This document shows positions 57,108-64,000 of a stretch of 64,000 bases of DNA, piece by piece (position 1 is the first letter of the stretch; each line of letters starts with the position of its first letter). The stretch lies in the sequence record NC_015933.1. One strand, 5' to 3'. This stretch comes from Escherichia phage vB_EcoP_G7C. The notes beneath the pieces were generated by a model, which saw nothing but the letters and a program-made list of their open reading frames with translations, was not told where the DNA came from and made no database searches. Both the position numbers and the translations under genes were made by a program.

Positions 57108-59393
57108 TTACAGGTTCATGCCAAGAGCCGATGCTGGGTCTTGGCTAGGGTCATAGTATTGGGAACTAAGTGAATAAGCTGGGTTTTGTTGAGCAGCTAA
57201 ATCACGTTCTGGTATAGAGATCCCATCAGTCAAAGTATTATATCCAACAGCTGCAGATATGTTGGGGGTAGTTTCCCCTTCTTTAATAGGTGTTGTCAAT
57301 GCCTTAGTTATCTGAAGGTTCTGGTTTCCTTGGGATTGTGCTTTTTGTTTTTCCATATCACGAGCATGTTTAGTACCAGATTCCTGTTCCAGATAATCCA
57401 GGTCTTTAAGGTCACCACTAGAAGCAGCCTCTTTAGCTTTAGCCATATTGAGTGCAATCTTGCTTTGTAACTCTTCATTCTCAAGCTGTGCTTTCTGAAT
57501 TGCCAACTGCTTAAGCTGTTCTTCCATAGGGTCTGGCTGTGGTTGCCAGGTACGTAACTCATGAGCCAGGTCAGGCATACGTTTAAGTTCTGCAATCTTA
57601 GCTACGAGAGATAACGTAATAGTTTGGTCAACCGTATTACCCAATGTTTGAACCATGAAGCTCAGGTCTTGAGATTTCTGGTCTTGAGATTTCTGGTTAT
57701 CAATTTCAGCAGTATTAATATCAACCTCAATGTCGAAATTACCTTTAAGGTCTTCACGGTTAATCTCTACATACTGCTCGTTAGTAATACGTACTACTTC
57801 TTTCTCAGATAAAAACACAGCATTCATTGCACAAATCTTAGTACCAATGTCTGCCATACCCTTAGCTAATCGACGAAGGATTGCCATCTCACGTTTGGAT
57901 GCTGCATCAAGTGCACCACGAATACCGGCAGCCACTTCTCCGTAAGCTGAACCAGTTACACCACCGGAGAATGCTTTAACACCAGTTAGTGATTCAGCTT
58001 CCTGGTTTTGCATCTGGGTCATTATTATTGCCGACTGAGGTAACTCAGGGAACTTATGCTCCATAATGGCCTGACTAGGGTTACCCTGCATTGGGTTATA
58101 TTCATAGTCTTGTCCATCGTCATATCGACGACGGTTCAGTGTATCCAGCATTCCTTTAGGGTAACCACGTTGTCCATTTGCACTTCGACCTAACAGGTCA
58201 ATCATCCCTCGCATAGTTGCACCAAGAATTGCTTGGTTATCCCCCAACAGTTCAGCATCAGCTTCGCCAAAGAGTTCACGTTTACGTGGCATATAAGGAA
58301 CAACTACTAAAGGTAATTTACCGTCAGGGAATGGGTTCCTCTCCATGCGAATAAGGGTAGAACCAATCCAGGTAGCAACAATAGGTTCCAGAGAACCATC
58401 ATCATTAATGTCGTAAAATCCCCAGTACTCATAAGCAACAACCTTCTTACGAAGTGCATCCTTAAACTGGAAGTCACTAGGAGTTTTACTTTCATGGTCT
58501 GGGTCAGTCATAGGACTGGAACTTTCCCAGTCAATCTTATCTAAATTGTGATAACGGTCCTTATTCTTCATGAGGTCTGCTTTGCATGTCTCAAAAGAGA
58601 TAACTGCATACAGAGCCTTATCCAAATCACCATTACAGCTTGGGTCGATAACTACGTTATTAGGGTTAAGCATTTCAACAGTAGGTCTGTTAACCAGTGC
58701 CTTCTCTACTTCTACTTCAGTAACTCCTGTCTGGATTGCATAGGTAGCTTCTCCAGTTTCATTGAAGTAGTTAACAGCTTCTTTAATATCTTCCGGCATT
58801 GTTTCATCATACTCACGAGAATTCTCTGCCTGAAGCTGTAAAGCCTGTTGGAGAACATCTGCCTGTTCCTGGTTCTCAATTGGATACAACTGGAAGACTG
58901 GTGTTTCTGTTTTAATCTTAACAGTCTTACGTTCCCAACCAATACGAGCAATACCAGTACCGTCATCTACAACACTGTGTACGTAATCATCTACTAATTT
59001 CACTTTATTAAGCTGGGTACGAAATTGGTAGTTAAGAACTAATTCATTCTGACGTGCAGCTAATTCATCTTCAAAAGTAACCGGAGTTACTTTAAAGAGT
59101 TTATTAGACGAGAGGAACGGTTCAGATAATGGAGCATATCGCCACTCTGCCTGACGGCGAACCAGTCTGGGTTGGACTTGAGATCGGCCTTTAACCTTTG
59201 GGGGTTTAGCCTTACCTTTGACTTCCATCAGGTCATTCCACTCACGTATCTGAGCCATAATCGCATCGTGAGCAGGTTTAGCCGATTCCAAATCACCCTT
59301 CAGTAATTGGATACTTGGTTCCTTCTTCCAGTCCGTTAACTTCTCTGATTGAGCCGGGTCTGGTAAAGGCTTAAAAGTGTCTTGGTGTTCCAT
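57108..59393 (-). CDS. Portal protein (N4 gp59-like)
   Basis: 761-aa ORF upstream of capsid genes; size and order match N4-type portal. Confidence 0.6.
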
Positions 59394-59401
59394 AGTTAAT
59401 C

Positions 59402-59923
59402 CTATTCAAAAAGTTTACGGTCAGCCTGAATTTGTTTACCCAACTCAATTAGTTGGTTGTCACGGAGTCTAACAGTTGCCCGGAGTTCTTCAACCAAACG
59501 TCTGCCTTCTTCAAGACTGTTGTCGAGTCTGGCTGCATGGCTTGCAAGACTTCTGCACTCAAGGGTTCCGGCTTCGGCTTGACGTTTATATACCGATGCT
59601 CGTCTTTCAGACTGTTGCATCCGGCTGTCGTAATCACTACTAACGCGAGCAAGCTCGCTTGCGTAATTACTCTCAGCCGTCTGCAACCGGGAAGTGAGTA
59701 ACCCGACTTCATAACTATGGTTTCTTTGGAGAGCATTGTATTTGTCCTGTAGTTCTTGCGTTGCCTTCTGATCTTCAACCTTTTGGGCATCCCACTTCTT
59801 TTGAACAGTAGACTGTCCATTGGAATTACCCCAAAAGTAAATGGTGGCCCCGAGGACCACCACCAGAAGATAAGGCCAACCTTTAGAGATTAGCATCTTC
59901 ATTACATGCCTCCAGTGGTACAT
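59402..59923 (-). CDS. Rz-like i-spanin (N-terminal TM helix, periplasmic coiled coil); true start may be an internal Met near 59896-59902
   Basis: [24 protein letters not shown] transmembrane segment followed by Gln/Ala/Arg-rich coiled-coil; contains an out-of-frame lipoprotein ORF. Confidence 0.55.
59449..59712 (-). CDS. Rz1-like o-spanin embedded in Rz in an alternative frame (lipoprotein)
   Basis: Within track ORF 59449..59820: signal peptide [22 protein letters not shown] with lipobox-like TAGC, Pro-rich mature part ([12 protein letters not shown]...). Confidence 0.45.
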   Translation of the reverse strand: MKSGYSLPGCRRLRVITQASLLALVVITTAGCNSLKDEHRYINVKPKPEPLSAEVLQAMQPDSTTVLKKADVWLKNSGQLLDSVTTN

Positions 59924-60518
59924 TACCGATTCGGTTAGCTACCCAACCATACGTAAAGTCTGGCATGTTCAATGAGGTGTAGTGGTTCAATTGTTTAGCA
60001 TCAAGCAACTTAATCATTACCTGACATGCTGCAACTTTGCCTCGTTTTTTCTGCAATGCTTTATATGCATTAACAGTACCTGCACCGACTTTACCATCAA
60101 CTTGTACTTTAGGGTAGTCTTTGCCATTACGGGACATTTCATTAAGAGATTGCTGCAACCACTTAGCTGGTCTGGTTACACCGGTATTAACACCAGCATC
60201 AACCAGTTTGTATGTTACAGCAGGAGATATATCAGCGAAGGCTACGAAGTTAGGTTTAATAACGTAGTCATCAATGTATATCTCAGCAGCCATCTCTTTC
60301 GATAAACCTTTCATGGAACCATCCCAACCATACTCAGTAGCCAGAACTTCTTGGTGAGACTTAGCTACTGAATGGGTAATACCATGATTAGTTTCCCCAC
60401 CTGGGTCACGAGGATTGTTTACGTACCCTCCTTCCATATAGAACACTGCCCCCAGAATAGCAGCGATAACTCCTCCCACTGCACCCCCTTTTGCAGCAAG
60501 TTTCTGTTTAGCTTTCAT
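59883..60518 (-). CDS. Endolysin: GH108-family N-acetylmuramidase with N-terminal SAR (signal-anchor-release) segment and C-terminal peptidoglycan-binding region
   Basis: MEGGYVNNPRDPGGETNHGIT matches the GH108 EGGYVNDPxDxGGxTxxGIT signature; N-terminal Gly/Ala-rich weakly hydrophobic GGAVGGVIAAILGAVF. Confidence 0.7.
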   Translation of the reverse strand: MKAKQKLAAKGGAVGGVIAAILGAVFYMEGGYVNNPRDPGGETNHGITHSVAKSHQEVLATEYGWDGSMKGLSKEMAAEIYIDDYVIKPNFVAFADISPAVTYKLVDAGVNTGVTRPAKWLQQSLNEMSRNGKDYPKVQVDGKVGAGTVNAYKALQKKRGKVAACQVMIKLLDAKQLNHYTSLNMPDFTYGWVANRIGNVPLEACNEDANL

Positions 60519-60768
60519 GAGAATCTTCCTTTGGATGGAATCGTATTAGTCTGCCCACAATATTTAAAGCAAACAGTGCGATTGTAATACTGGAACCATG
60601 TGGAATATCTTCAAGGATGTGACGTGGTAGTCCTGTTAGCATTGGTTGGATAATATCTACTGTAGAAAACAGAATTAATCCAAATGCACTAATCTGAACA
60701 GATGCCCACTTCCAGGACTTCTTCCAGTTAGGAACTAGCCCTATTTTTCTTTTTAGCTTGTGAACCAT
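60508..60768 (-). CDS. Putative holin/pinholin (two TM segments; 86 aa from internal Met; track ORF 60508..60834)
   Basis: ISAFGLILFSTVDII and ITIALFALNIVGRL hydrophobic helices; GGGAG RBS before the internal ATG; immediately upstream of the SAR endolysin. Confidence 0.45.
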   Translation of the reverse strand: MVHKLKRKIGLVPNWKKSWKWASVQISAFGLILFSTVDIIQPMLTGLPRHILEDIPHGSSITIALFALNIVGRLIRFHPKEDSHES

Positions 60769-61085
60769 GCGAATATCTCCCGTCTTGCAGCAGCCAATAC
60801 ACCAATAATTGCACCTGCCCCAGCCCACACCCACTTACCAAAAATTCCAGCACCTGCAACCTTATGTTTAATGGTGATGAACTCTTCGATGGTAGGTTCA
60901 GACTTAGTGATGCTCTCCTCTACCCGTCTAAGTCGGGTACTAAGATCACCCATAGACTCGCTTAGCTTTTTAATAGACTCTTCCATTTTCTCCCTATCCC
61001 TCGATTCACGAGTTTGGTTTTCGAAAATGTTTCTCAGTCTCTCTTCAAGTCTGGCTAGAGTTACGTTATCTGGTTCATTTCCCAT
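60753..61085 (-). CDS. Membrane protein with coiled-coil N-terminus and C-terminal TM helix (candidate holin/antiholin or lysis regulator)
   Basis: C-terminal GAGIFGKWVWAGAGAIIGVLAAA hydrophobic segment; first gene of the lysis cluster. Confidence 0.4.
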   Translation of the reverse strand: MGNEPDNVTLARLEERLRNIFENQTRESRDREKMEESIKKLSESMGDLSTRLRRVEESITKSEPTIEEFITIKHKVAGAGIFGKWVWAGAGAIIGVLAAARREIFAWFTS

Positions 61086-61152
61086 AGGGATTTTCTCAGG
61101 TTAGTTAAGTCGTAATTGACTGAAACAGTCTACATAAAGGTTTGATTGGGGT

Positions 61153-61182
61153 ACAACAAAAAAGCCCCTCCCTCATGGGCTT
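61153..61182 (-). terminator. Intrinsic terminator (minus strand) downstream of tailspike gene
   Basis: On minus strand AAGCCC-ATGAGGGAG-GGGCTT followed by TTTTTGTTGT. Confidence 0.5.
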
Positions 61183-61205
61183 CGAAGATTAAATACTTTT
61201 TCTGA

Positions 61206-61233
61206 TGATAAAAATAACCCCGCCGAAGCGGGG
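61206..61233 (-). terminator. Intrinsic terminator (minus strand): CCCCGC-TTCG-GCGGGG hairpin + T-run
   Basis: On minus strand GC-rich 6-bp stem with TTCG tetraloop followed by TTATTTTTAT; identical hairpin at 63844. Confidence 0.6.
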
Positions 61234-61261: not shown

Positions 61262-63817
61262 TTAGCCCACATTACCAATAGTCATGCTGTACTCAAGAGT
61301 AAATAACTGACTAGAAGCAGACGGGTTATATAATCCTACATAACCAGAGGTAGCTACAGTAGTAGAGAATGCAGACGTAGTTGCCGTGCCATCATCTGAC
61401 TCTACAGTAAAGGTATGAGCACCAGTAGAGGAGGAAGTATATTCCCATACTTTAAAGCCTTTATCTTCACGAGTAGTATCACCAAATACTACCCAGTCAG
61501 TTGGGTTAGCATTGTTGAACGTACCGATGCACATATTACCTGCAGCATTCACACCGACTAACACACCAACATTAGTAAGTGGGTTATAGTTAAGTGCAAT
61601 ATAGGTGTTTTTCTTAAGACCTCTCGGTACAGCCAGATAACCTACAGATGCACCATTATAAAGGTGAGAGTCTGCGGTTTTACTGAACTGAGTACCAGAC
61701 AAAACTTCACCAAATACACCATAGTCATTGGCGTTAGACTGCTTCATTACTGGAGCAGGACGGGTCATGTTAGGTTCTTTGCTAAGACGAACCATCGGCA
61801 GCTTAACCCCATCCGTTTTGTAAGAACCAAACTTCAGCATAGGGAAGTAAGCATCAGTAGGACTACCATCAATGATATAACGGATAAAGTTCAAACCTTT
61901 ACGTAATCGCCCCATATAGGTAGTAAGGGTTTTGCCACCCCCAAAGTAACTCATGGCAGTCTTGCCATTAAGCACGGTGCGGTAGGCATTAATTTGAGTA
62001 TTACGTTCTTGGTATTCACCGGACTCAAACAATGCTTTGCCCACAGGAGACTCAACACGGATGTTGTGGGATTGCCCAACAACGGCAGCATTAGTCCATG
62101 GTTCTAGAAGGGATACAGTCATACCTTCTTCTTCACACCATACCATTGTGGTCATGGTTACATTTTCATTAGTTACACACTTAGACAGAAAACGGAATAC
62201 GTTCAGAGCAGGAGCACCAGATACAGGTACATACTGTGGTGCATAGTGAGTACCGGAAGGATACCCTACACAATCCCAATAGTTTTCTACAGCAGCCTGA
62301 GTGAGCATATCCCCCGGTCTAACACGACGACAGTACTTATTACCAAGGGTCTGCATATACATCGCATTACCCATAGCCATTTGTCCAAGTTCTTGTGGGT
62401 GAGTAGTATCCCAGGTTCCATCCTTCTTAACATAGTAGTAGTACCCAGTTTGCTCATTGCGGCTACTTGCACTAGTCAGATTTGGTCCCAAGTTAAAATA
62501 CTCAACACCTAGTTTATCTGCCATGTACTTCTTAGTACTAAGCTCAAATGCCATACGTACTGAGTCATTATCGTTGACTGTTACAATACCAACGGCACAA
62601 CCGTAGCCCCATGCTTTACGAACAAACTTGTCAATCTGGTCACGGTAGGTAGCGATACTAGCACTACTGTCATTCCAACCCATTGCAAGGATACATACAC
62701 GAGGAGCTTCTGCACCATAGCGTGTGTTACCGAAGAACCCACGGTCGAAGTTACGATAACCCCAACCGTCGGATAACTTCTTACCAGATACGGAACAGTT
62801 AGCTGATTGGTAAATAGTTTCACCACTACGACGAGACTGTGTGAGCAACAAGCCATTCATCCAGTGTTCAGTCCATGAGTGGGAACCCCCAGATAAAGAA
62901 TGATTGTATGTACTTGGGGCATCTAAGTCACCATCTGAGTTAGTTGGCGGAGAACTCCAATCCTGTTTACCCCATGCACCATCAGTAATGGAATCGCCAA
63001 TGATACCGATACGACAAAATGTCTGGTCACGGAATGCACAGTATATTTCGTCATTAACGGTTTTATTGTTACCATTCATTGAAGCAGCAATGTCAAACGT
63101 ATGGTCCTTTGCATACCACTGGTTTTTAACAATAAGTTTGCCTTCCCCAACAAACTTACGGACATCATCATCGGGTAGTAAGTTACAACGAATGGTAACA
63201 CCATTAGGGATAAAGATTTTACCGGGGAAAGCATAAGCAGCTGCACGGTTATCCGTAGTAGTATTAACAACAATACCAGGAACATCATATACGGAAGTAG
63301 AACCAACAGGAGGAATTAGACCATTGTTTAATTCTTGTCGTATTAATTCATCATTAGCAATAACCCATGCAGTGGGAGAAATACCACCTGCACTAACCGG
63401 GGTAGAGTTAAGTGGTACGCTCTTGGGTAACCCACCAGCCCAGCGATACTGCGTGCCATTATGAGTAAGCAATTCATTCTTGGTCTGTATAACTGAGCCA
63501 GAAGTAAACGTATCCGGTAAAGTTACATATTCTTTGCGAGTAACAGCTAATGCACCTAAGTCCACGCTACCAGCAGAGTGAACTAATACACCAGCAGGAC
63601 TAAGGCTTATAGCAGTAACACCTGAACCAATGTTAGCAGGTAAGGAATAAGCACGCTGTGTCCCTTTGTCGTAGATGACTTTGTAACCACTTAGTACAGC
63701 ACCCACTGAGAAGTAAACAACCTCAGATTGTTTAACCCCAAAGTGACGTGCTATTGCTTGTTTATTGGTTAGGATTCCTGTTGAACCCTTACCGCCTTGT
63801 GAGAACATTTCGTTCAT
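61262..63817 (-). CDS. Tailspike protein with SGNH/GDSL-type esterase domain (candidate O-antigen deacetylase receptor-binding protein)
   Basis: GDSITDG (SGNH block I) and AMGWNDSS (block III GxND); 851 aa; architecture as described for esterase tailspikes of G7C-type N4-like coliphages. Confidence 0.65.
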   Translation of the reverse strand: MNEMFSQGGKGSTGILTNKQAIARHFGVKQSEVVYFSVGAVLSGYKVIYDKGTQRAYSLPANIGSGVTAISLSPAGVLVHSAGSVDLGALAVTRKEYVTLPDTFTSGSVIQTKNELLTHNGTQYRWAGGLPKSVPLNSTPVSAGGISPTAWVIANDELIRQELNNGLIPPVGSTSVYDVPGIVVNTTTDNRAAAYAFPGKIFIPNGVTIRCNLLPDDDVRKFVGEGKLIVKNQWYAKDHTFDIAASMNGNNKTVNDEIYCAFRDQTFCRIGIIGDSITDGAWGKQDWSSPPTNSDGDLDAPSTYNHSLSGGSHSWTEHWMNGLLLTQSRRSGETIYQSANCSVSGKKLSDGWGYRNFDRGFFGNTRYGAEAPRVCILAMGWNDSSASIATYRDQIDKFVRKAWGYGCAVGIVTVNDNDSVRMAFELSTKKYMADKLGVEYFNLGPNLTSASSRNEQTGYYYYVKKDGTWDTTHPQELGQMAMGNAMYMQTLGNKYCRRVRPGDMLTQAAVENYWDCVGYPSGTHYAPQYVPVSGAPALNVFRFLSKCVTNENVTMTTMVWCEEEGMTVSLLEPWTNAAVVGQSHNIRVESPVGKALFESGEYQERNTQINAYRTVLNGKTAMSYFGGGKTLTTYMGRLRKGLNFIRYIIDGSPTDAYFPMLKFGSYKTDGVKLPMVRLSKEPNMTRPAPVMKQSNANDYGVFGEVLSGTQFSKTADSHLYNGASVGYLAVPRGLKKNTYIALNYNPLTNVGVLVGVNAAGNMCIGTFNNANPTDWVVFGDTTREDKGFKVWEYTSSSTGAHTFTVESDDGTATTSAFSTTVATSGYVGLYNPSASSQLFTLEYSMTIGNVG

Positions 63818-63827
63818 ATAAACCTCT

Positions 63828-63860
63828 TTGTTTTTCTAAGAAACCCCGCCGAAGCGGGGG
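63828..63860 (-). terminator. Intrinsic terminator (minus strand), same CCCCGC-TTCG-GCGGGG hairpin as at 61217
   Basis: Identical 16-nt hairpin; on minus strand followed by TTTCTTAG; downstream of the partial gene at window end. Confidence 0.55.
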
Positions 63861-63864
63861 TATT

Positions 63865-64000
63865 CTACCTGATAATGAACTTACCGAGGCTCATATCATT
63901 TATCAGAGTTGCAACTATGTTTGCCAGTTGGGTGGTTGTTAACGTGTTCACATCACCACCACGCAACTGTCCGGCGTTTGTGAATGGGAACTGCTGAGGC
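63865..64000 (-). CDS. C-terminal fragment of a minus-strand gene continuing beyond the window (probably tail fibre/adaptor)
   Basis: Minus-strand frame open from window end to TAG at about 63865 (…LANIVATLINDMSLGKFIIR*); followed by terminator. Confidence 0.35.
   Translation of the reverse strand, partial: PQQFPFTNAGQLRGGDVNTLTTTQLANIVATLINDMSLGKFIIR

Follow-up and report, generated by a model that had tools for sequence, protein, structure and literature searches.

Introduction

The closest described system to the locus analysed here is the tailspike gp63.1 of the N4-like podovirus G7C, whose crystal structure (PDB 4QNL) dates from 2015 and which was the subject of a functional study in 2017. 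As related in the open-access papers that cite this study (Prokhorov et al. 2017, Mol Microbiol 105:385), gp63.1 strips the O-polysaccharide of E. coli 4s of its lateral O-acetyl groups, the O-antigen backbone stays intact after treatment, and G7C cannot infect without the deacetylase activity. One of these papers gives the O3-acetyl group as the target. According to the parts of the literature accessible to us, the O-antigen of strain 4s is O22-like and is O-acetylated by WclK. The 4s mutants described as resistant to G7C comprise non-acetylating wclK mutants, which are completely resistant, and also rough mutants (10.1101/542787, among others).

In the same accounts gp63.1 is a trimer that makes no direct contact with the virion and attaches instead to the virion-anchored protein gp66, at a region resembling T4 gp10 (residues 138-294). 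Its domain 5 is described as one of two carbohydrate-binding module (CBM)-like domains that make up a putative saccharide-binding valley, and the esterase site and both CBM-like domains have been proposed to provide nine saccharide-binding sites per trimer. The original authors further inferred, rather than demonstrated, that deacetylation is processive and that it drives the particle to the membrane or signals to it. A preprint on horse phages (10.1101/542787) adds that siblings carrying a lyase allele, Alt63, infect the non-acetylated mutant, and that a single R421P change in gp63.1 re-targets G7C and alters its host specificity.

Here we analyse a tailspike gene found near one end of a 64-kb stretch of phage DNA (hereafter the window), for which an initial annotation made from the sequence alone had predicted an O-antigen-modifying esterase.

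Results

The ORF is gene 63.1 of phage G7C

The ORF listing bears out the 851-aa reading frame of the initial annotation. It runs on the (-) strand from an ATG start through 851 codons to the stop codon (Table 1) and is preceded by an AAGAGG ribosome-binding site at 63823-63828, 5 nt 5' of the ATG. An exact-sequence look-up matched all residues of the product to AEL79675.1/YP_004782195.1, annotated "tail fiber protein [Escherichia phage vB_EcoP_G7C]" and encoded on a 72,917-bp contig. In the PDB, phmmer returned 4QNL_A ("Tail fiber protein"), identical over residues 1-851; the 4QNL construct counts 859 aa, 8 residues more than the ORF, and otherwise does not differ from G7C gp63.1. PHROG 21878, 'tail fiber protein', matches as well (1255 bits), and the window codes for the wild-type Arg421. 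The ORF is hence the known gp63.1 of phage G7C itself and not merely a relative of a known system. The earlier proposal of an SGNH/GDSL esterase tailspike is upheld by this 100% identity to the protein of 4QNL, and the remark that such enzymes had been reported for some N4-like coliphages turns out to refer to this very protein.

The surroundings agree with this identification. The nearby portal (57108..59393) and N-acetylmuramidase (59883..60518) are exact matches to G7C proteins. Gene 63.1 sits in the adsorption locus between a gp63 homolog and gene 66, an order also found in relatives, where the tail fibre/gp66 gene is followed by the tailspike. The upstream gene, probably gene 66, extends past the edge of the window, and its TAG stop codon lies at 63865-63867. 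The rest of the window shows ~94% DNA identity to other Gamaleyavirus (N4-like, Schitoviridae) genomes and encodes the giant virion RNA polymerase (an ORF of 3,754 aa) expected for an N4-like phage. The window therefore comes from the genome of G7C, an N4-like Gamaleyavirus. Scans of the 64-kb window for tRNAs and Rfam families gave no matches.

As both structure and function of gp63.1 had already been characterised, the result is a rediscovery that brings no new prediction and holds little interest as a new finding.

Table 1. Features of the gene 63.1 locus, in coordinates of the 64-kb window
Feature	Position	Strand	Residues of gp63.1	Basis or remark
Gene 63.1, tailspike gp63.1 of phage G7C	61262..63817	(-)	851 aa	Span includes the stop codon
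N-terminal adaptor	63317..63817	(-)	1-167	Docks the spike onto gp66 (docking from the literature)
Domain 3, Gp63_3rd_G7C (PF21562)	63086..63283	(-)	179-244	Pfam, E 7.9e-41
SGNH/GDSL esterase (O-acetyl esterase) domain	62363..63010	(-)	~270-485	PF00657, AlphaFold, Foldseek
SGNH block I, GDSITDG	62978..62998	(-)	274-280	Ser276, putative nucleophile
SGNH block II, Gly345	62783..62785	(-)	345, within SGKK 344-347	Putative oxyanion hole
SGNH block III, GWNDSS	62663..62680	(-)	380-385	Asn382, putative oxyanion residue
SGNH block V, DTTH	62399..62410	(-)	470-473	Asp470 and His473, completing the putative triad
Domain 5, galactose-binding-domain-like, G7C_GBD (PF21988)	61823..62278	(-)	514-665	Pfam, E 5e-109
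Domain 6, C-terminal, G7C_C (PF22245)	61274..61813	(-)	669-848	Pfam, E 2.6e-126
Terminator-like hairpin CCCCGCTTCGGCGGGG + T-run	63844..63859	(-)		Between gene 66 stop and gene 63.1 start
Second, identical hairpin CCCCGCTTCGGCGGGG + T-run	61218..61233	(-)		28 nt 3' of the gene 63.1 stop codon
Gene 66, 3' end (putative), virion-anchored fibre carrying gp63.1	63865..64000	(-)		Frame translation, gene order, literature on the locus

Domain architecture of gp63.1

The adaptor (Table 1) contains the Pfam family Tail_spike_N (PF18668) at residues 91-153 (E 1.7e-14). Over its whole length it matches the N-termini of the CBA120 tailspikes TSP1, TSP3 and TSP4 (4OJ5, 6NW9 and 5W6H, E 6e-68 to 1e-49). 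Such homologous N-terminal head/adaptor domains characterize branched tailspike systems of the CBA120-TSP/G7C type, among which gp63.1 takes its place. Essentially all homologs have domain 3 together with the esterase domain, and many of the more distant ones lack G7C_C or carry something else in its place.

The Pfam family Lipase_GDSL (PF00657) covers residues 270-485 with profile positions 1-207 of 208, at a score of 26.7 bits that is just over the gathering score of 23.6. The blocks GDSITDG and GWNDSS both fall within this match, in the central part of the protein, as had been read from the sequence. The Pfam scan detected no beta-helix, pectate-lyase, glycosidase or lyase family in gp63.1, and the whole chain is assigned elsewhere. 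The protein is therefore not a beta-helix depolymerase of the P22 type, its catalytic domain being an alpha/beta SGNH domain.

Conservation of the catalytic residues and fold of the esterase domain

DTTH at residues 470-473 is the sole DxxH motif in gp63.1. When the protein was shuffled, the ordered series GDS...GxND...DxxH with SGNH-like spacing appeared in 10 of 20,000 shuffles. Given this result, the placement of the motifs and the near-full-length match to Lipase_GDSL, we consider that the motifs are real and beyond chance.

We then turned to their conservation. Homologs forming 137 clusters were collected with the C-terminal 672 residues of gp63.1, and 75 of them were aligned, down to ~25% identity. 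Seven residues, G274, D275, S276, G380, N382, D383 and H473, are invariant (75/75); D470 is present in 73/75, and G345 in 68/75, the others having Ser or Ala at this position. The initial annotation had named the Ser-His-Asp triad as the element to be located: motifs and homolog conservation point to Ser276, His473 and Asp470 as the probable triad, with Gly345 and Asn382 as the likely oxyanion residues. A search of the open literature for gp63.1 paired with 'S276' found nothing.

An AlphaFold model of the esterase domain was built on a 19-sequence alignment, and a single-sequence version (pLDDT 34.6) was discarded. The model (pLDDT 90.3, pTM 0.89) shows alternating strands and helices. Its best Foldseek match is 4QNL, with a TM score of 0.97 and an rmsd of 1.2 A, followed by EstA, Axe2 (an acetyl-xylooligosaccharide esterase), TesA, the carbohydrate esterase families CE2/CE3, PAF-AH, PatB and OatA. 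The Foldseek probability is 1.00 for EstA, Axe2, TesA, CE2, CE3 and PAF-AH. Having blocks I, II, III and V together with the three-layer alpha/beta/alpha fold, gp63.1 belongs to the SGNH/GDSL superfamily.

A phmmer search of the PDB with the esterase domain alone returned 4QNL only, the further SGNH structures lying beyond the reach of a sequence search. An hhalign comparison between the domain profile and E. coli TesA (in a sequence identical to that of 1IVN) aligned block V only, at a probability of 2%, placing D470 and H473 opposite D154 and H157 of TesA; this agrees with the register but has no significance by itself. The identity of gp63.1, its domain map, the conservation of its catalytic residues and its fold are shown by the present analysis.

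Distribution of the esterase module

Megablast of gene 63.1 against a phage collection, from which the G7C record itself was seemingly absent, gave matches limited to the first ~300 nt. The matching phages include phi G17, SP5M and many Kuttervirus-like myoviruses. This confinement to the 5' part indicates a mosaic boundary, with a widespread adaptor on its N-terminal side and a rare catalytic module on its C-terminal side.

A tblastn search with the esterase domain detected a homolog in 17 of 50,697 phage records, none of them from another Gamaleyavirus. The carriers include the T7-like phages Pisces and Penshu1, the 152-kb phage SKA64, four E. coli phages of 43-45 kb (Snoke, Schulenburg, Shashou and Sciku), the Aeromonas phages ST4 and ZPAH34, and the Pectobacterium phages CB1, CB3, CB4 and Nepra, of 74-77 kb. 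Among proteins from genomes and metagenomes the module is common, under names that refer to Enterobacter, Proteus, Providencia, Citrobacter, E. coli and Vibrio. Mb-sized contigs encode many of these proteins, which are hence probably prophage-borne. The module is therefore rare among sequenced phages and common in prophage-like proteins of Enterobacterales and Vibrio. The sole close relative is a 5.4-kb metagenomic contig, which carries a 90%-identical gp63.1 next to a different gene 66 allele.

Hairpins on both sides of gene 63.1

Gene 63.1 is bracketed by two identical hairpins, CCCCGCTTCGGCGGGG, each 16 nt long, GC-rich and with a UUCG sequence (Table 1). No further copy was found in the 64-kb window when up to 2 mismatches were allowed, and none would be expected by chance. 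The exact sequence is likewise absent from six related loci, which have hairpins at the same positions with different stems. In relatives a hairpin occurs at both junctions, and the stems, although they differ, are internally compensated. In the metagenomic relative, the similarity of gene 66 ends directly upstream of the upstream hairpin. The horse-phage preprint (10.1101/542787) describes a stem-loop at the g66/g63.1 junction, that is, the upstream hairpin only, and speculates on a role in module exchange.

The simplest reading of both hairpins is that they are intrinsic terminators. A tentative idea, which we hold to be rather unlikely, is that the pair delimits an exchangeable tailspike cassette of G7C-like phages, marking the points at which it recombines or even promoting recombination there.

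Discussion

Our results identify gene 63.1 as the O-antigen-deacetylating SGNH esterase tailspike of phage G7C, a reading to which we give a probability of about 97% and which nothing in the analysis contradicts. In the mechanism that best explains the data, gp63.1 is a tailspike, trimeric according to the literature, in which an SGNH-fold O-acetyl esterase replaces the usual beta-helix depolymerase. Its N-terminal ~170 residues dock onto the virion-anchored gp66 to form a branched adhesin, and the SGNH domain and the two C-terminal CBM-like domains bind the O-antigen of E. coli 4s, which is O22-like and O-acetylated. The enzyme then removes the acetyl groups and leaves the backbone uncut, in a reaction thought to be processive that may move the virion toward the outer membrane or signal to it. 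We rely on the literature for the activity, for its being essential and for the way gp63.1 attaches to gp66, and on what the original authors deduced for processivity and signal transmission. As deacetylation is essential and is thought to bring the virion to the outer membrane, gene 63.1 determines the host range, and gp63.1 accounts for the narrow, acetylation-dependent host range of G7C.

The predictions made from the sequence about the biology of the phage are all correct and have already been demonstrated in published experiments, which shows that function could be read rightly from the bare sequence. Deacetylation of an acetylated surface polysaccharide at adsorption, as the initial annotation proposed, corresponds to the reported action of gp63.1 on the O-antigen of E. 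coli 4s. This strain, in which WclK acts on the O-antigen, is also the enterobacterial host with an O-acetylated O-antigen that had been anticipated. The role of host-range determinant agrees with reports that allele swaps or point changes in gp63.1 alter the host range.

Other readings of the protein have to be weighed against this one. Degenerate enzyme folds occur in some phage receptor-binding proteins, and a Pfam GDSL score barely over its threshold could be taken as a sign that the SGNH domain is a dead, lectin-like module, with a spike that binds the O-antigen without modifying it. This is nevertheless very improbable, since the four catalytic blocks are intact, S276, N382 and H473 are invariant in the 75 homologs, and the literature reports a real deacetylation that is essential for infection, with acetate set free from 4s LPS by the recombinant protein. 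We also find it hard to believe that gp63.1 is a conventional depolymerase, a glycosidase or lyase that cuts the backbone of the O-antigen, its esterase domain playing an accessory part. It is true that most tailspikes are depolymerases and that the same locus in siblings such as Alt63 holds a lyase-type allele that depolymerises the 4s O-antigen. Yet the chain of gp63.1 consists of adaptor, domain 3, SGNH domain and two CBM-like domains, with no beta-helix, pectate-lyase or glycosidase family, and the backbone is reported to be intact after treatment.

A further possibility concerns the substrate rather than the chemistry. The structural neighbours of the model include lipases/thioesterases of the TesA kind, PAF acetylhydrolase and the peptidoglycan O-acetyl enzymes PatB and OatA, and promiscuity is frequent among SGNH enzymes. 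The true substrate could accordingly be another acyl ester (in peptidoglycan, enterobacterial common antigen, capsule or outer-membrane lipids), deacetylation of the O-antigen being a side activity. Against this stand the complete resistance of wclK mutants, which lack only the O-acetylation of the O-antigen, the resistance of rough mutants, and the location of the enzyme on an external tailspike, beside CBM-like domains; we regard another substrate as extremely unlikely. On the domain scan, the conservation and the literature, the depolymerase, dead-enzyme and alternative-substrate readings were all rejected.

The reading of gp63.1 as an active O-antigen deacetylase can finally be placed among known systems. 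With the classical SGNH hydrolases (E. coli TesA/TAP, Axe2 and the CE2/CE3 acetyl-xylan esterases), the G7C domain has in common the alpha/beta/alpha fold and the four-block signature. It differs from them in sequence (10-17% identity), in being ~80 residues larger, with insertions, and in being part of a tailspike.

G7C-type esterase tailspikes found elsewhere, in Pisces, Penshu1 and SKA64 and in prophages of Enterobacter, Proteus, Providencia and Vibrio, combine domain 3, the SGNH domain and the galactose-binding domain (with or without the C-terminal domain), and their catalytic residues are conserved. Their identity to gp63.1 is at most ~56% over the module in the protein search, the metagenomic contig excepted, and for the esterase domain it reaches about 65% in sequenced phages. 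They further differ in bearing at least 4 different N-terminal adaptors, including T7 tail-fibre N, P22 head-binding and tail-collar types, and in belonging to other types of virion, with a T7-like phage and a myovirus-like locus among them; their C-terminal domain is often different.

The same strategy, deacetylation that leaves the polysaccharide uncleaved, is followed by the spikes of Vi phages II and III, Salmonella phage c341, Pectobacterium phage PP99 and Acinetobacter phage Aristophanes, and by the SGNH receptor-binding proteins of Klebsiella prophages. Their hosts and substrates differ (capsules, other O-antigens), and none was among the tblastn matches to the G7C esterase domain.

The lyase-type alleles of gp63.1 (Alt63 and the tailspikes of F22, PhAPEC7 and SP5M) occupy the same locus, fulfil the same O-antigen-dependent receptor-binding role and have the N-terminal adaptor in common with G7C, with 85-90% DNA identity over the first ~100 codons. 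Their C-terminal catalytic part is unrelated to that of G7C and depolymerises the O-antigen, for which O-acetylation is not needed (10.1101/542787). Beside these alleles, gp63.1 stands as the reference case of a tailspike that recognises its host through deacetylation of the O-antigen rather than through its depolymerisation.

Gene 63.1 lies between two identical hairpins

Gene 63.1, which encodes the esterase tailspike gp63.1, is bracketed exactly by two identical 16-nt hairpins, each formed by CCCCGCTTCGGCGGGG and followed by a T-run. A copy count over the whole window found only these two copies in 64 kb, when chance alone would give none. The equivalent junctions in relatives also hold hairpins, with compensatory changes in their stems. 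Both 16-nt hairpins are probably terminators, and they are possibly also the edges of a swappable cassette. On the downstream side, the gene-proximal copy is followed by a second terminator-like hairpin that is conserved in phage F22. The order downstream of gene 63.1 is hence a cassette-specific hairpin and then a hairpin of the backbone. On the upstream side, synteny and the literature indicate that the neighbouring ORF is gene 66, the virion-anchored fibre that bears gp63.1.

Features in and around the gene 63.1 locus
Feature	Window position	Strand	Remark
Hairpin copy 1, CCCCGCTTCGGCGGGG + T-run	63844-63859	minus	flanks gene 63.1
Hairpin copy 2, CCCCGCTTCGGCGGGG + T-run	61218-61233	minus	flanks gene 63.1
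Second terminator-like hairpin, GAAGCCC...GGGGCTTTTTTG	~61150-61185	minus	after the gene-proximal hairpin
Upstream ORF, 3′ end, ...LINDMSLGKFIIR and stop	within 63818-64000; stop 63865-63867	minus	ORF continues past window edge
Lysis cassette	59402-61085	minus	directly downstream of tailspike gene
Virion RNA polymerase ORF, 3,754 aa	36223-47487

The neighbouring lysis cassette and the rest of the window

The lysis cassette comprises a gp63-like protein of 110 aa, read here as a coiled-coil with a hydrophobic segment at its C-terminus, a DUF7940 protein annotated as a holin in relatives, a muramidase with GH108 and PG_binding_3 domains, and a 173-aa Rz-like ORF. The latter contains, in another frame, an embedded 123-aa ORF with a lipobox-like LVVITTAGC, which suggests embedded spanins of the Rz/Rz1 type. 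Relatives annotate the DUF7940 protein as 86 aa, so the GTG start listed for the 108-aa ORF found here probably lies upstream of the true one.

Scans of the 64-kb window found no tRNA genes and no Rfam families at gathering score. The sign of the GC skew flips near 36 kb, coinciding with a change of coding strand.

Mosaicism and transfer of the esterase module

In the phage collection searched, nucleotide-level relatives of gene 63.1 (61262-63817) were limited to its first ~300 nt, which are matched in phi G17, in SP5M and in numerous Kuttervirus-like myoviruses of ~150 kb, including one that bears a Campylobacter phage label. This confinement reveals a sharp mosaic boundary past the N-terminal adaptor. 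In a PDB search, the solved structure of Gp48 (9D84 chain A, 777 aa) had its N-terminal 180 residues in common with gp63.1, and a faint second match paired its GLND block with the region around the gp63.1 GWND. From these sequence matches, Gp48 may be another SGNH-type esterase spike; 9D84 was absent among the Foldseek matches listed.

The G7C-type esterase module was also found in ENA contig k141_9465 (3839-8550), inside a myovirus-like baseplate locus where it adjoins an NCTSP/TIM-barrel spike, and in the T7-like phage Pisces (6001-8742), joined to a T7 tail-fibre N-terminus. Its presence in both settings shows that the module has moved across virion types.
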